NCBI GenBank assembly: GCA_021773215.1
Contig: JAJFKM010000048.1
Location: 12,923-76,922, forward strand
Direction: 5' to 3'
Length of the DNA: 64,000 bases
From: Gammaproteobacteria bacterium
GTDB lineage: Bacteria; Pseudomonadota; Gammaproteobacteria; Eutrophobiales; Eutrophobiaceae
Made by a program: the position numbers and the translations under genes. This document shows positions 12,740 through 21,629 of the stretch, piece after piece. Within the stretch, counting starts at the first letter, position 1; each line of letters begins with the position of its first letter. The notes below the pieces were generated by a model, which ran no database searches, was not told the origin of the DNA, and saw only the letters and a program-made list of their open reading frames with translations.

Positions 12740-13651
12740 TCAATTATCATCTTTCTGATTTTTACTATAAATCAGAAAAGTAATTTGTTCCGATAATAAA
12801 CCTATCAAAAAAACAAGAATTGAAGTCAAGAACAATAAAGCACTCATATTAGTAAATCTTTCAAGGTAATAATATGTGTAGGCATAATAGCTAAGTCCTG
12901 TAATAAAAACGGCAAAACTAGCAGGACCAAATATTTTGAGCGGAGAGTATAATGCAGTGATTCTAAAAATTATCAATAAAAATCTAATCCCATCTTTTAC
13001 TAATTTAATGTGACTAGTACCAGTTCGTTTCTCGCAACTGATTGGAACATATTTAATGCTGTATCCAGATCGAAAAAAAGCCATAGTAATGGTTGTTGGA
13101 TAAGAAAAACCATTCGGCAATAAATATAAAAAGTTTTTAAACATATTTGCTTTCACAGCTCTAAAGCCAGAAGTTAAATCAAGTATTTTATGTCCTGACA
13201 TATAACTGGCTAGCTTATTATAAAACAGATTAGCTATATACCTTGGAAAGCTCGTTTGAGATTTCTTATTCCGAGCGCCAATAACCATATCGTTTCCATT
13301 GTCAATTTCAGCAAGAAATTTTTTAATGTCTTCTGGCGAGTGCTGACCATCTGCATCCATAAAAACCAATATGTCACCAGTTGCCGTGCGCGCACCTGCT
13401 TTTATCGCTGCACCATTTCCTTTTGAATACGGATGGCTAATTACTTTTACAGCATGACTATTACAAATCTCGATTGTGTCATCTTCGGAACCATCATTGA
13501 CAACTAGGATTTCTGCTTCTGGACAACAAGCACGTATTCGAGGCAATAATTTATTTAATGATTCTCCCTCATTTTTTGCTGGCAAGATAATACTGACTGA
13601 TGTTTCCATTTTTATAGAATCATTCATTTTCCTGAATAGGTCTTTGTTCAA
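12740..13651 (-). CDS. Polyprenyl-phosphate sugar transferase (GT2, ArnC/GtrB/DPM1-like)
   Basis: VSIILPAKNEGESL...ILVVNDGSEDDT...VFMDADGQH are hallmark ArnC/DPM1 motifs. It has C-terminal TM helices and overlaps the downstream-upstream GT-C gene by 32 bp. Confidence 0.8.
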   Translation of the reverse strand: MNKDLFRKMNDSIKMETSVSIILPAKNEGESLNKLLPRIRACCPEAEILVVNDGSEDDTIEICNSHAVKVISHPYSKGNGAAIKAGARTATGDILVFMDADGQHSPEDIKKFLAEIDNGNDMVIGARNKKSQTSFPRYIANLFYNKLASYMSGHKILDLTSGFRAVKANMFKNFLYLLPNGFSYPTTITMAFFRSGYSIKYVPISCEKRTGTSHIKLVKDGIRFLLIIFRITALYSPLKIFGPASFAVFITGLSYYAYTYYYLERFTNMSALLFLTSILVFLIGLLSEQITFLIYSKNQKDDN

Positions 13652-15530
13652 TCATTGAAATTTGCTCTATTAATTTATTGTAAACCCAACTATTTCCTTG
13701 CTGCTCAAAACTATACAACAACTCGTTTTTTCTTATTTCAGCCTCACTAGCTTTACCTAAACTAGATAATATCTTTATTTCTCTAATCTTCTTTTCAATA
13801 CTGGGATATAAATTATCTGATAAACGTAAGTATTCTAAGGCTTTTATGAAATTACCGCTAAATATTTCAAGTCCTGATAAATAATCATAAAATTGTGCAT
13901 GGTTAACATTGTCATATTTATGATTATTTATCAGGTGATTTATTAAGTTTTTTAATTTTTCTACATCAATTATCGGGCATTTATTTTTAAGTACTTGCAA
14001 TGTCAGATTATCAAGAACAACGACAACATTAAACCCAGTTGGAATACTCACATCTGCAATATTATAGAATTCATTCCAATCTTCATCAACGCTCCTCAAG
14101 CCCCTTATACAATTATCCAGTTTTATCTGCTCAGCATAGGGGTAGAATGATTTGGGACTAAGTTTTTTTAAATCCTCAATAATCAGTCGGGCTTGTTCAT
14201 GATCTTTATTTATTTTCAGATTATAAAGATCAGTTTTAGCTCTGATAGAATCAGGTTGATTTCTGGCCCATTCATTTATTTGTAATGCAGGTTTCGACCA
14301 AAGATCTACCTCGATCACTGTAATAGCTAATATCAAACCGCAATACATGAAAGCTGTTAAAATAATCCATAGACGATGCTTGACTATTGTGGACAAATAA
14401 ATAAAGCCACAGGAAATGCCTAATATTAGGCTAAAGGAAGGTAGGTAATTCCTATGTTCAAAATAAGGTTCCAGATTCAAATAGGTCGATTCAAGCAAAT
14501 GTCCACCCAGAAACCAAAGTATTGCAAAACTATATATAGGCTGCGACTTTCTTTTTATCAAGGCTGTTGTGAGTAGCGTCAACAATATAATCCCACTTAA
14601 CATAAACCTACTCGAATAAATACTCCTTACGATTTCATAATTATCATGATACAAACTGAATGAAGATGGACTTGGTAATAGAATATTCTTTATGTATTCA
14701 GCCAAAACAACAACTTCAGTAAGTATTTTTTCTATAACTCCATAATCCTTAAAAGCATAACCATATAGATTCGCCTCGAATTTAAATGCAAGATAAATAA
14801 TCAATAGCGTTAATGGCGATATCAAGAAAAACATTGTCCAATGAGACCAGTATTTTGGTCTCTGCAAATGCATCAGGATCGTTATTTCCAAAGATAAAAT
14901 ATAAATCAGTAAAAGGATTCCATTTTCTTTACATAGAATCGCCAACGCTGTAAAAAATAAAATTAATCCGCCAGTGAGACAATCTTTATATAAACTCTGT
15001 CTGTCTGCATGTTTTAACCTCATGAGGAGATAGGTCAAAACACCGAGTAACATAAAAAACGTAGACAATAATGTCATCCGTTGAATCACATACAAGGTCG
15101 TTGTTAACTGAATAGGGTGCAGCAACCACAAGCCTGTGACAATTATTGGGATGTACTTTCGAAATGTGCCCTCTTTAAATAATATAGTTAGATAAGCACT
15201 GATAATGTAGATCAAACATCCATTTAGAAGATGAATGCCCAGATTAACTAACTTAAAATCAAACGGCGCACTAGGCCAACTTTCATGTTGTAAGGCGAAC
15301 GTTACTAAAGATAATGGCCTACCAGAAGGTCCTGCAATATCGGTAGCAAATATAAAATAAGGAAACCCATAAGTCTTTATGGTGTCCAAATCACGCAAAT
15401 TAGAAAAATCATCTAGTAAAAAACGACTATCCAATCCTGGCCAATAGATCAATGTTGTTAGCATCAATAAGCAAAGCAACATCATAAACTGCCAACGATT
15501 AATAGTTGGTTTTTCTTTAATCATTATCAT
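13620..15530 (-). CDS. GT-C fold membrane glycosyltransferase with C-terminal TPR-like domain (PMT/ArnT/TfpW-like)
   Basis: 636 aa with about 11 predicted TM segments. There is an acidic LLDDFSN motif in the first extracytoplasmic loop and a C-terminal soluble region of about 200 aa with TPR-like repeats. It lies immediately downstream of pilA. Confidence 0.65.
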   Translation of the reverse strand: MIMIKEKPTINRWQFMMLLCLLMLTTLIYWPGLDSRFLLDDFSNLRDLDTIKTYGFPYFIFATDIAGPSGRPLSLVTFALQHESWPSAPFDFKLVNLGIHLLNGCLIYIISAYLTILFKEGTFRKYIPIIVTGLWLLHPIQLTTTLYVIQRMTLLSTFFMLLGVLTYLLMRLKHADRQSLYKDCLTGGLILFFTALAILCKENGILLLIYILSLEITILMHLQRPKYWSHWTMFFLISPLTLLIIYLAFKFEANLYGYAFKDYGVIEKILTEVVVLAEYIKNILLPSPSSFSLYHDNYEIVRSIYSSRFMLSGIILLTLLTTALIKRKSQPIYSFAILWFLGGHLLESTYLNLEPYFEHRNYLPSFSLILGISCGFIYLSTIVKHRLWIILTAFMYCGLILAITVIEVDLWSKPALQINEWARNQPDSIRAKTDLYNLKINKDHEQARLIIEDLKKLSPKSFYPYAEQIKLDNCIRGLRSVDEDWNEFYNIADVSIPTGFNVVVVLDNLTLQVLKNKCPIIDVEKLKNLINHLINNHKYDNVNHAQFYDYLSGLEIFSGNFIKALEYLRLSDNLYPSIEKKIREIKILSSLGKASEAEIRKNELLYSFEQQGNSWVYNKLIEQISMIEQRPIQENE

Positions 15531-15584
15531 GTATCAAGGATAACAGCAGAATCTTTCCAAGGTTGATAACTTAATAACAGACAT

Positions 15585-20468: not shown

Positions 20469-20528
20469 GAAGCTTTCCTGTGTTTTATATTACTAATAAT
20501 CGGATAATTCTTAAAATCAAATAAACTT

Positions 20529-21629
20529 TTATCTCTCATTGCCACTAGCCTTGCGCCAAGTAAATATTGCTGTAAATGCGTAGTTCCATACTGCGCCAGC
20601 TACAGTACCGAGCGCTCCTGCCAACCACCATGGAAAAGCGGCATTAAACAACCACGCTGAAAATGCGATATTTATAATTGCACCAAAAGAGCAAGCCAAA
20701 TAAAAACTGAACAACCCCTGGATTAATTTCTTTCCAACTAATTTTCTATCTCTATAAGTAAAACTATTATTAAGAAAGTAATTGCTCGTCATTGCAACAA
20801 GTGTGGCTAAAGTTTGAGCCAGAATAAAATCACTTCCTATAATTTGGTGTTGTAACCAAAGCACAAAAAGGTGAACAAAAACTCCGCTTAGTCCAATTGT
20901 TATAAATGAAATAAAACGTACTGGAAAAATACGACCTAATAATTTGTCTGCAATGAGAGTAAAGAACTCCCACGTCACCATAAAGTTCAACTTGCTCTCA
21001 CCTGCGACTCTATGTCGCATCGTATACGGGAGCTCTTTATATCTAGTTGATTTGGGGGATGAAACTAAAATATCTAATAATATTTTAAATCCTTTACCTG
21101 ATAGATTATGGATGACATTTTCGAACAAGCTCCTTCGCATCATGAAAAACCCACTCATGGAGTCTTTAACGGGAAACTTGAGAATTATTTTACTAGCCAG
21201 AGTAGCAAATTGACTTATCCATACTCGATGCGCCGCAAGCGAACCAGTACTCCCAGTAGCGGCATAGCGACTACCAATAACAATATCAAAACCATCATCT
21301 TTCAATTGCTGCAACATTAGAGGCAATAGCCGTTCATCGTGTTGCAAATCTGCATCCATTACACAAACATAAGGTGATGATGATGCCAAGATTCCTTCTA
21401 TGCATGCTGATGACAAACCTCTCCGTCTTATTCGTTGAATCCCACGAATACGTATATCAGTTTGAGCCATTTCGCGCACAATAGTCGATGTTCCATCAGG
21501 TGAATCATCATCAACAAAAATTATTTCCCAATTTCCTTCATTTAGTACTTCATATATGACTGATACTAATGATGCAACATTCTCTTTTTCATTGTATGTA
21601 GGTACAACGATTGTTAACTCGACCGTCAA
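20529..21629 (-). CDS. Polyprenyl-phosphate sugar transferase (GT2, DPM1/ArnC-like) fused to GtrA-like 4-TM domain
   Basis: LTIVVPTYNEKENV...IIFVDDDSPDGT...VMDADLQHD are the GT2 motifs. The C-terminal 120 aa form four TM helices resembling GtrA flippase-like domains. Confidence 0.75.
   Translation of the reverse strand: MTVELTIVVPTYNEKENVASLVSVIYEVLNEGNWEIIFVDDDSPDGTSTIVREMAQTDIRIRGIQRIRRRGLSSACIEGILASSSPYVCVMDADLQHDERLLPLMLQQLKDDGFDIVIGSRYAATGSTGSLAAHRVWISQFATLASKIILKFPVKDSMSGFFMMRRSLFENVIHNLSGKGFKILLDILVSSPKSTRYKELPYTMRHRVAGESKLNFMVTWEFFTLIADKLLGRIFPVRFISFITIGLSGVFVHLFVLWLQHQIIGSDFILAQTLATLVAMTSNYFLNNSFTYRDRKLVGKKLIQGLFSFYLACSFGAIINIAFSAWLFNAAFPWWLAGALGTVAGAVWNYAFTAIFTWRKASGNER

Follow-up and report, generated by a model that had tools for sequence, protein, structure and literature searches.

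Results

Organization of the pilA locus

The DNA analysed here (the window) is a stretch of 64,000 nucleotides from contig JAJFKM010000048.1 of assembly GCA_021773215.1, a gammaproteobacterium of the Eutrophobiaceae (positions 12,923 to 76,922, forward strand), and this study concerns its pilA gene, which sits in a block of putative glycosylation genes. Between 10.7 and 24.7 kb, all genes lie on the minus strand in the order pilS, pilR, a family 2 glycosyltransferase (GT2) with a GtrA-like domain, a fusion of major facilitator superfamily (MFS) and spermidine-synthase (SpeE) folds, a TMEM260-like glycosyltransferase of the GT-C fold, pilA, a second GT-C enzyme of 636 amino acids, another GT2, a family 4 glycosyltransferase (GT4) and an ArsR-like gene. 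Pfam and NCBIfam identify every gene of this block save the 636-amino-acid protein. A first-pass annotation, made from the sequence alone, had proposed this layout; the genes it named were all found where it had placed them, on the minus strand, and its core observation, that pilA is flanked by two GT-C proteins (13620-15530 and 16412-18409) and by two polyprenyl-phosphate GT2 enzymes, is borne out by Pfam, structure and profile matches. We refer to the 636-amino-acid GT-C and the GT2 behind it as module A, and to the TMEM260-like GT-C and the GT2-GtrA protein as module B.

The pilA gene (15647-16075, minus strand) encodes the major type IVa pilin (Pfam Pilin, 7e-17; N_methyl, 7e-11) with a C-terminal Cys pair. 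Its true start is likely M4 at 16066, which yields the leader MHKLQKG followed by FTLIELM. A predicted sigma-54 (-24/-12) promoter, TGGCATGAACTCTGCT, lies at 16131-16146 on the same strand, ~55 nt upstream of pilA and within the 336-bp spacer that follows the TMEM260-like gene. This site is the single match to the pattern TGGCAY-N5-YTGCW in 64 kb; at least one match occurs in 30 of 100 shuffled sequences, so the pattern by itself is not rare, and the call is made because of its position before pilA and its nearness to pilR. Downstream, in the interval between the end of pilA at 15647 and the start of the 636-amino-acid GT-C gene at 15530, an intrinsic terminator is found at 15585-15616 (minus strand; 14-bp stem with 6 GC pairs, followed by a T-run). 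The sigma-54 promoter and the terminator previously ascribed to pilA were thus both recovered.

The module A transferase and its GT2 partner

The gene behind the pilA terminator (13620-15530, minus strand) was assigned as the module A transferase from its predicted fold, a tetratricopeptide repeat (TPR) profile and an acidic loop. The predicted structure (predicted local distance difference test 83, predicted template modelling score 0.82) comprises 11-12 membrane helices, followed from residue ~414 by helical repeats that form a periplasmic C-terminal TPR domain, and its best fold match is PMT. In an alignment of 14 diverse relatives, the first-loop residues D40-D41 never vary, nor does the stretch ELYFEHRNYLP. 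Also invariant in the family is Y279-X6-P286, followed by X4-F291; the final Pro of this motif is present in the family consensus and not in the window protein. The tail matches the consensus TPR profile at E=2e-14, and 10 of the 14 relatives have a TPR_19 match.

The membrane domain has no Pfam model. Across the 14 relatives, searches against Pfam and NCBIfam returned no match but TPR, even at E=1, and neither an ArnT nor a PMT_2 hidden Markov model (HMM) matched. A sequence search of the PDB with the 636-amino-acid protein likewise found TPR matches only, and Foldseek hits in the PDB were mostly TPR. The family is a large one: 1.84 billion proteins contain 9,081 representatives of it at E up to 1e-30. 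A stretch of the pattern HP..T..Y..QR..LLS resembles TMTC/DUF1736; no HMM supports this resemblance, and a TMTC-like reading was rejected. Profile-profile comparison with the TMEM260-like family gave no convincing relation (33% probability), which indicates that the two GT-C families are not recent paralogues.

Directly downstream lies the module A donor synthase (12740-13651, minus strand; probable start 13609), a polyprenyl-phosphate sugar synthase composed of a GT2 domain (Pfam Glycos_transf_2, 1e-31) and a C-terminal membrane anchor. It matches PDB entries of DPMS (2e-18), ArnC (3e-18) and GtrB (5e-12), and NCBIfam returned partial matches to AglJ, Dol-P-hexose transferase, ArnC, PgfS and PpgS, each below cut-off. 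Partial PgfS matches were obtained from both GT2 proteins of the window, and the structure matches of each confirm the earlier assignment of both as polyprenyl-phosphate-sugar-synthase-like.

The module B transferase and its GT2 partner

The second GT-C (16412-18409, minus strand; 665 amino acids) is a TMEM260-like protein of DUF2723, family GT117 in CAZy. Pfam PF11028 scores 83.2 bits against a gathering cut-off of 24.2, and human TMEM260 (PDB 9rql) is matched at E=2e-26 with the single sequence and at E=3.8e-47 with the family profile. In this alignment D41 of the window protein falls on D52 of TMEM260, the residue altered in the D52A variant that was used in the TMEM260 study (PMC10214176), and E40, D41 and D42 are invariant among relatives. 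Since both GT-C proteins have Lys/Arg-rich N-termini, the acidic first loop is placed outside the cytoplasm in each; together with the invariance of D40-D41 and E40-D41-D42, this upholds the acidic DD/EDD motif that had been assigned to the first extracytoplasmic loop of both. The claim that both carry TPR-like C-termini stands for the 636-amino-acid protein, whereas for the TMEM260-like protein it is weak (TPR_14, E=0.007, below cut-off).

The predicted module B donor synthase (20529-21629, minus strand) is of the Dol-P-Man synthase (DPMS) type, with a GT2 domain (Pfam Glycos_transf_2, 2.6e-36) and a GtrA/DPMS membrane domain (GtrA_DPMS_TM, 9e-18). It aligns end to end with the Pyrococcus furiosus Dol-P-Man synthase 5mlz at E=2e-51. 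Between pilSR and the module B genes behind it, no obvious terminator is seen.

Conservation of the link to pilA

For the 636-amino-acid GT-C, we carried out a profile scan with one genome per species and took the best 80 of at least 596 relatives; open reading frames (ORFs) were called in these loci and searched with the window proteins. Sequence upstream of the GT-C gene is available in 74 of the 80. Here pilA lies directly upstream on the same strand in 45 loci, adjacent and divergent in 7 and within 10 kb in 8, and 14 have none; pilA is thus beside the GT-C gene in 52/74 and no more than 10 kb away in 60/74. Hosts of this linkage include Woeseiaceae, Thiomargarita, Rhodanobacter, Dyella, Alcanivorax, Pelomicrobium and Magnetococcales; among cultured bacteria, Rhodanobacter sp. 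T12-5 and A1T4, Dyella sp. AtDHG13 and Pelomicrobium sp. G1 have the succession pilA, GT-C, GT2. A GT2 gene is found directly 3' of the GT-C gene in 49 of the 80 loci, and 7 others have no downstream sequence. The terminator is conserved as well: a strong hairpin with a T-run occurs within 110 nt of the pilA stop codon in 38 of the 45 same-strand loci, compared with 4 of 600 random windows from those loci. In 14 loci two or three tandem paralogues of the 636-amino-acid GT-C stand behind pilA, an array that suggests multi-step or multi-site decoration and rapid diversification; tandem GT-C arrays were seen among L002, L004, L019, L020, L028, L030, L032, L056, L067, L074, L077 and L079.

The linkage of the TMEM260-like gene was followed by contig look-ups and a metagenome scan, which gave 26 non-redundant close loci with strong full-length matches. 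Of these, 22 carry pilA or pilR, and 14 carry a DPMS-type GT2 on the same contig, mostly straight after pilR. Where at least 3 kb of sequence is available on each side, pilA lies no more than 4 kb from the TMEM260-like gene in 8 of 10 loci, and in most of the close metagenomic relatives that gene occupies the pilR-pilA interval. In L134 and L118, more distant TMEM260-like genes likewise stand directly 3' of a pilin gene verified with Pfam. The gene order that recurs is sucDC, pilS, pilR, a DPMS-type GT2, one to three TMEM260-like genes with MFS/SpeE among them, pilA (sometimes in two copies), the 636-amino-acid GT-C, GT2, GT4 and the ArsR-like gene. The arrangement, taken at first to be a one-off elaboration, is therefore a recurring and variable layout of many uncultured Gammaproteobacteria. 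Orthologous blocks keep their adjacent pilin, as the counts above show, and they do not track lipopolysaccharide or polysaccharide genes: of 44 genome loci whose flanks are complete, 37 have pilA and 2 have a Wzm-like gene for a polysaccharide ABC-transporter permease.

An MFS protein with an inserted SpeE-fold domain

Between the two module B genes lies the gene of a 664-amino-acid membrane protein of 14 helices (18474-20468, minus strand). It has an MFS fold, into which a domain of the spermidine-synthase fold is inserted after helix 7 and before helix 8. In 18 members of this family, Lys+Arg average 17.8 in the short loops that share a side with the termini, compared with 4.3 in those opposite. 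This bias places the termini in the cytoplasm, where other MFS proteins have them, and accordingly predicts that the SpeE-fold domain faces the periplasm. Its nucleotide-type cofactor motifs are invariant across phyla, with GAGSG in place of the GGGDG of true spermidine synthases. In view of that motif, the NCBIfam speE score of 70 bits against a cut-off of 250 and the predicted topology, we rejected a reading as cytoplasmic spermidine synthase. The SpeE-fold membrane protein of the first-pass annotation is hence real, but is better named an MFS fold with an inserted SpeE-fold domain that is predicted to be periplasmic.

We know of no chemistry that accounts for a periplasmic domain of the S-adenosylmethionine (SAM) or decarboxylated SAM type. 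Candidate roles of the protein are a flippase for lipid-linked sugars, an exporter that feeds its own outer domain, a periplasmic modifier or a binding module. The family reaches Actinobacteria and Chloroflexi, embedded among GT-C genes in some genomes and alone in others. On a 2.2-Mb contig (L160, 1-13045), a homologue occurs in a group that lacks a pilin and comprises five GT-C genes of the PMT_2 family along with a GT2, an acyltransferase and a DUF2304 gene; the partnership of GT-C and MFS/SpeE proteins may predate the link to pilin and extend more widely. In two further genomes (L039, 7519-9789; L063, 7498-9711; both minus strand), neither with an adjacent pilin, the divergent neighbour of a 636-amino-acid-type GT-C encodes a 738-757-amino-acid membrane protein. 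Its N-terminus may be of the 'fused MFS/spermidine synthase' type; if so, this would be a second, independent pairing of a GT-C with a SpeE-type protein.

Variable genes between pilR and pilA

The interval between pilR and pilA varies among relatives, in which it holds one to three TMEM260-like genes, MFS/SpeE proteins, fusions of a sulfatase with GDPD, or an acyltransferase. In the closest relative (L081, 72% identity), an 882-amino-acid sulfatase + GDPD fusion and a Pfam-dark 575-amino-acid protein stand in for MFS/SpeE. Such fusions of a membrane sulfatase-family protein (LtaS/EptA-type) with GDPD, 880-915 amino acids in length, were located in L001 (4367-7018), L081 (5541-8189), L103 (2434-5151), L104 (5126-7855), L107 (5161-7812) and L109 (11883-14627), and in L103, L104 and L109 they occur alongside an MFS/SpeE gene. 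By analogy with Neisseria PptA, they are candidate pilin phospho-form transferases. Other proteins encoded in the interval are a ~990-amino-acid SpeE-type membrane protein, an Acyl_transf_3 O-acyltransferase and Pfam-dark proteins of 575-600 amino acids (L095, 9957-12908; L098, 4764-7775; L094, 6518-7687; L081, 8204-9931; L092, 6363-8168). That the pilin and its regulators are kept while the membrane modification enzymes are swapped is as expected of a pilin-decoration island.

Neighbouring genes and genomic context

Upstream of module B lie pilR (21697-23037), a sigma-54 enhancer-binding response regulator (Pfam Response_reg, Sigma54_activat, HTH_8), and the sensor kinase gene pilS (23037-24656; Pfam 6TM_PilS, HisKA, HATPase_c), both on the minus strand. 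The latter is divergent from sucCD here and in the majority of related loci. The genes for the assembly ATPase PilB, the platform protein PilC and the prepilin peptidase PilD (35544-39443, plus strand; Pfam T2SSE with MshEN, T2SSF, Peptidase_A24) belong to a canonical pilB-pilC-pilD-coaE-zapD cluster (35544-40874, plus strand), 20 kb away from pilA. Between pilA and this cluster are pilSR, sucCD, nadE, bamD, rluD, a laccase-family gene, a glutamate-dehydrogenase-family gene and clpB. The window also includes chromosomal core genes (the dcw cluster, secA and sucCD), which together with pilB, pilC and pilD indicate that the type IVa pilus system is complete and that the block is chromosomal. The G+C content is 30-37% for the pilin/glycosylation block and the adjoining sugar cluster (window 1-24000) compared with 40-42% for the core (24000-64000, with sucCD, pilBCD and dcw), and the low value would fit a region of surface-structure genes that is variable or undergoes horizontal exchange.

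On the other side of module A, a GT4 glycosyltransferase gene (11501-12715, minus strand; Pfam Glycos_transf_1, Glyco_transf_4) is followed by a gene for an ArsR/SmtB-like winged-helix protein (10755-11330, minus strand; Pfam HTH_5 and NCBIfam HTH_metalloreg, below cut-off). Strong GT4 orthologues stand 3' of the GT2 in the nearer relatives L001, L003, L009-L011, L043, L057, L081 and L084, and ArsR-like orthologues in the near relatives L003, L006, L011, L047, L081 and L084; both genes travel with the module in nearer relatives only. A 143-amino-acid ORF antisense within the GT4 gene (11451-11882, plus strand) is probably no real gene. Beyond lies an unusual cluster for nucleotide sugars and polysaccharide (736-10739, minus strand). 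Its genes encode an ABC-2 permease, a Nudix protein, an epimerase and a nucleotidyltransferase, together with a DegT aminotransferase, the alpha and beta chains of a thiamine-pyrophosphate-dependent E1 enzyme, a GHMP kinase, a radical SAM enzyme of the B12-binding kind and a GT2-like protein. This cluster may be the source of an unusual sugar, and it does not travel with the GT-C gene in other genomes.

Discussion

On the basis of these comparisons, we propose that the block is a post-translational-modification island built around pilA, in which two modules, each leading from a GT2 to a GT-C, glycosylate the pilin; we put the probability of this reading, which was drawn from sequence, at about 65%. 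In module A, the GT2 would charge undecaprenyl phosphate with a monosaccharide in the cytoplasm. After flipping, the PMT-like 636-amino-acid GT-C with its DD loop would transfer the sugar to Ser/Thr of the inner-membrane-anchored pilin, and its periplasmic TPR domain may grip the protein substrate. In module B, the Dol-P-Man-synthase-type GT2 would supply polyprenyl-phosphate mannose or a related hexose to the TMEM260-like GT-C, which would add a second sugar or modify a second site, and the MFS/SpeE fusion may flip the lipid-linked donor or further modify the product. Pilin glycosylation is known from a few pathogens, in which it blocks pilus-specific phages and alters pilus behaviour. Judging from P. 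aeruginosa, the low G+C content of the block and the changing gene content at this position, the modules would likely serve as a variable mask of the pilus surface against phages or grazers.

Several observations weigh against this proposal. In 14 of the 74 genome loci the 636-amino-acid GT-C has no pilin nearby, and in a 4.7-Mb genome (L083) both GT-C types, a DPMS-type GT2 and a sulfatase/GDPD gene are clustered although no pilin is detectable. A group of TMEM260-like proteins at ~32% identity sits in unrelated contexts. The linkage holds for the nearer part of the 636-amino-acid family, the 80 best loci as against ~9,000 representatives, so that the sampling leans to near relatives. No stand-alone gene for a small GtrA- or ArnE/F-type flippase lies between 10.7 and 24.7 kb, and the GtrA_DPMS_TM domain is confined to the C-terminal end of the module B GT2. 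The 636-amino-acid GT-C matches the motif YX6PFX7P of the pilin arabinosyltransferase TfpW in part, and the likeness of the two proteins, detailed below, is drawn from the published description of TfpW. Finally, the Ser/Thr richness of the pilin, which had been read as a sign of multisite O-glycosylation, proved uninformative: Ser+Thr make up 22.4% of the globular part in pilins adjacent to the GT-C compared with 20.9% in non-adjacent ones (p=0.10), and their content does not discriminate.

The same genes could alternatively be three-component systems of the Gtr/Gml type that add side-chain sugars to the O-antigen or capsule of the adjacent ABC-transporter-dependent cluster, with pilA a mere neighbour in a surface-structure hot spot. 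The ABC-2 permease and the long nucleotide-sugar pathway immediately downstream (736-10739) would suit such a role, as would the GT4 and ArsR-like genes, which bridge both blocks, the presence of Wzm/Wzt there in close relatives too and the enzymes of L083 with no pilin; moreover, three-component modification of ABC-transporter-made O-antigens is known (PMC11127046). Yet the counts for Wzm-like genes (2/44) and pilA (37/44) point the other way, in 38 of 45 loci the GT-C gene keeps its place immediately after the terminator of pilA, and the 636-amino-acid protein bears a TfpW-like TPR tail of the protein-binding kind. The family of the second GT-C, too, has one characterised member, which glycosylates protein (PMC10214176). 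We therefore consider an O-antigen or capsule target quite improbable.

A general periplasmic protein O-glycosylation, comparable to that by Neisseria PglL or actinobacterial Pmt, in which the pilin is one of many substrates or just co-regulated, would overlap pilin glycosylation instead of excluding it. The PMT-like fold, the action of TMEM260 and PMT families on sets of proteins and the loci with no adjacent pilin speak for a broader system, and transcription linked to PilR may be shared, as no obvious terminator separates pilSR from module B. Such a system is nevertheless unlikely to be the whole account, given that the tight pilA-terminator-GT-C cassette is the signature of dedicated pilin accessory genes and that GT-C paralogues form tandems directly behind pilA in 14 loci. 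That one or both GT-C proteins instead modify lipid A in the manner of ArnT, or another lipid, with an ArnC-like GT2 as feeder, is highly improbable. The match of the module A GT2 to ArnC structures (E=3e-18) would fit this idea, but HMM searches assign neither GT-C to the ArnT type, as the first-pass reading required, and no ArnT or PMT_2 model is matched; arnA, arnB, arnD, arnE and arnF are absent from the window, and a TPR tail and pilin linkage are foreign to ArnT.

If the block is indeed a pilin-modification island, a more far-reaching picture can be drawn, which we offer tentatively and regard as possible at best. Bacterial GT117 homologues would be dedicated pilin O-mannosyltransferases that work beside a TfpW-like enzyme. 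The MFS/SpeE protein would be a new kind of modifying enzyme outside the cytoplasm, a transporter that hands either a flipped lipid-linked sugar or an exported adenosyl cofactor to its own SpeE-fold domain in the periplasm. The genes between pilR and pilA would be exchangeable and account for no fewer than four chemically different pilin decorations, of which two are sugars, one is a phospho-form and one an acyl or alkyl group.

The interpretation is supported by comparative evidence, and its apparently new elements are a TfpW-style cassette with a different, self-contained donor supply, a second module with a TMEM260 homologue that resembles mannosylation, the MFS/SpeE fusion and the recurring modular layout in uncultured Gammaproteobacteria. 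The locus and its many relatives suggest that placing a GT-C behind pilA, as with TfpW, is a widespread solution among environmental Gammaproteobacteria, here refitted with a dedicated lipid-sugar synthase, and that bacterial TMEM260 relatives, for which the pilin would be the first candidate substrate, were recruited to the same substrate as a second family. If true, this would be the first bacterial function for DUF2723/GT117 and would provide a simple genetic system for an enzyme tied to a human congenital disorder. The work also defines a large Pfam-dark GT-C family of ~9,000 representatives and an MFS/SpeE fusion whose apparently periplasmic cofactor-binding domain lies beyond present knowledge.

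Among known systems, Neisseria PptA is a pilin phospho-form transferase of the sulfatase superfamily. Relatives carry a gene of the sulfatase family with GDPD at the pilR-pilA position, which is not in the window, and the analogy points to a phospho-form as another pilin decoration for which the island may carry genes. In the actinobacterial Ppm1/Pmt pathway, a GT2 makes a lipid-phosphate sugar and a GT-C moves the sugar to Ser/Thr of secreted proteins. The Pgf system of Streptococcus mutans also combines a GT2 with a GT-C for protein glycosylation (PMC5856776). The window resembles both in the partial PgfS matches of its two GT2 proteins and in PMT as the best fold match of the 636-amino-acid GT-C; it differs from them in that its enzymes are no members of the PMT/PMT_2 sequence families, in its Gram-negative host and in the dedicated link to one substrate gene.

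The principle of a three-component system of GT2, flippase and GT-C is established for glycans (PMC11127046) and, as the Pgf and Ppm1/Pmt systems show, for some proteins too. As in GtrA/GtrB/GtrC, GmlABC, ArnC/ArnEF/ArnT and CsbB/GtcA/YfhO, a GT2 polyprenyl-phosphate sugar synthase is here combined with an extracytoplasmic GT-C; unlike those systems, the block tracks a protein gene and not polysaccharide genes, and has no separate small GtrA or ArnE/F flippase.

Module B resembles human TMEM260, a protein O-mannosyltransferase of IPT domains, in the homology of the GT-C module (E=3.8e-47) with D41 and D52 aligned, and in the eukaryotic donor logic, as a Dol-P-Man-synthase-type enzyme is encoded beside the GT117 protein. 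It differs in its bacterial host, in the undecaprenyl carrier that is expected instead of dolichyl and in the candidate acceptor, a type IV pilin and not an IPT domain. The TMEM260 paper mentions bacterial homologues merely as 'distant homologs in bacteria' (PMC10214176). Our literature search (DUF2723, GT117, pilin O-mannosyltransferase, MFS/spermidine-synthase fusions) returned no earlier account of the pilin link, and in the literature searched no report connects enzymes of the TMEM260-like kind with pilin or with another bacterial substrate.

Module A has its closest counterpart in TfpW (AAM52060.1), a GT-C enzyme that arabinosylates pilin in group IV strains of P. aeruginosa (Pa5196, PA7); it has 646 amino acids, 11 transmembrane helices, a DDx loop and a TPR tail (bioRxiv 10.1101/2020.04.19.049825). 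TfpW is encoded directly after pilA and uses a polyprenyl-phosphate-linked monosaccharide as donor, and homologues are found beside pilA in several species (bioRxiv 10.1101/2020.04.19.049825). An anatomy of pilin gene, terminator and accessory gene has been described for the pilin accessory genes of P. aeruginosa (PMC11841053). By the published description of TfpW, the 636-amino-acid GT-C shares with it the place directly behind pilA and a terminator, the length of ~640 amino acids, ~11 helices, a cytoplasmic N-terminus, the DD loop and the periplasmic TPR tail. Unlike the tfpW locus, this one has no tfpX, and its GT-C gene is followed directly by that of a hexose-type GT2 synthase. Genes of the D-arabinofuranose pathway (phosphoribosyl-pyrophosphate transferase, DprE1, DprE2) were not found among the Pfam-scanned ORFs of the 64-kb window, and none stands beside the paralogous GT-C in Dyella (L074), where methyltransferases, GT4s and an asparagine synthase occur. 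Module A would then correspond to the pilA-terminator-tfpW anatomy with a hexose-type donor synthase replacing the D-arabinofuranose pathway. The comparison with P. aeruginosa pilA-tfpW that the first-pass annotation had called for thus yields the same succession of pilA, terminator and GT-C, here with a linked GT2.

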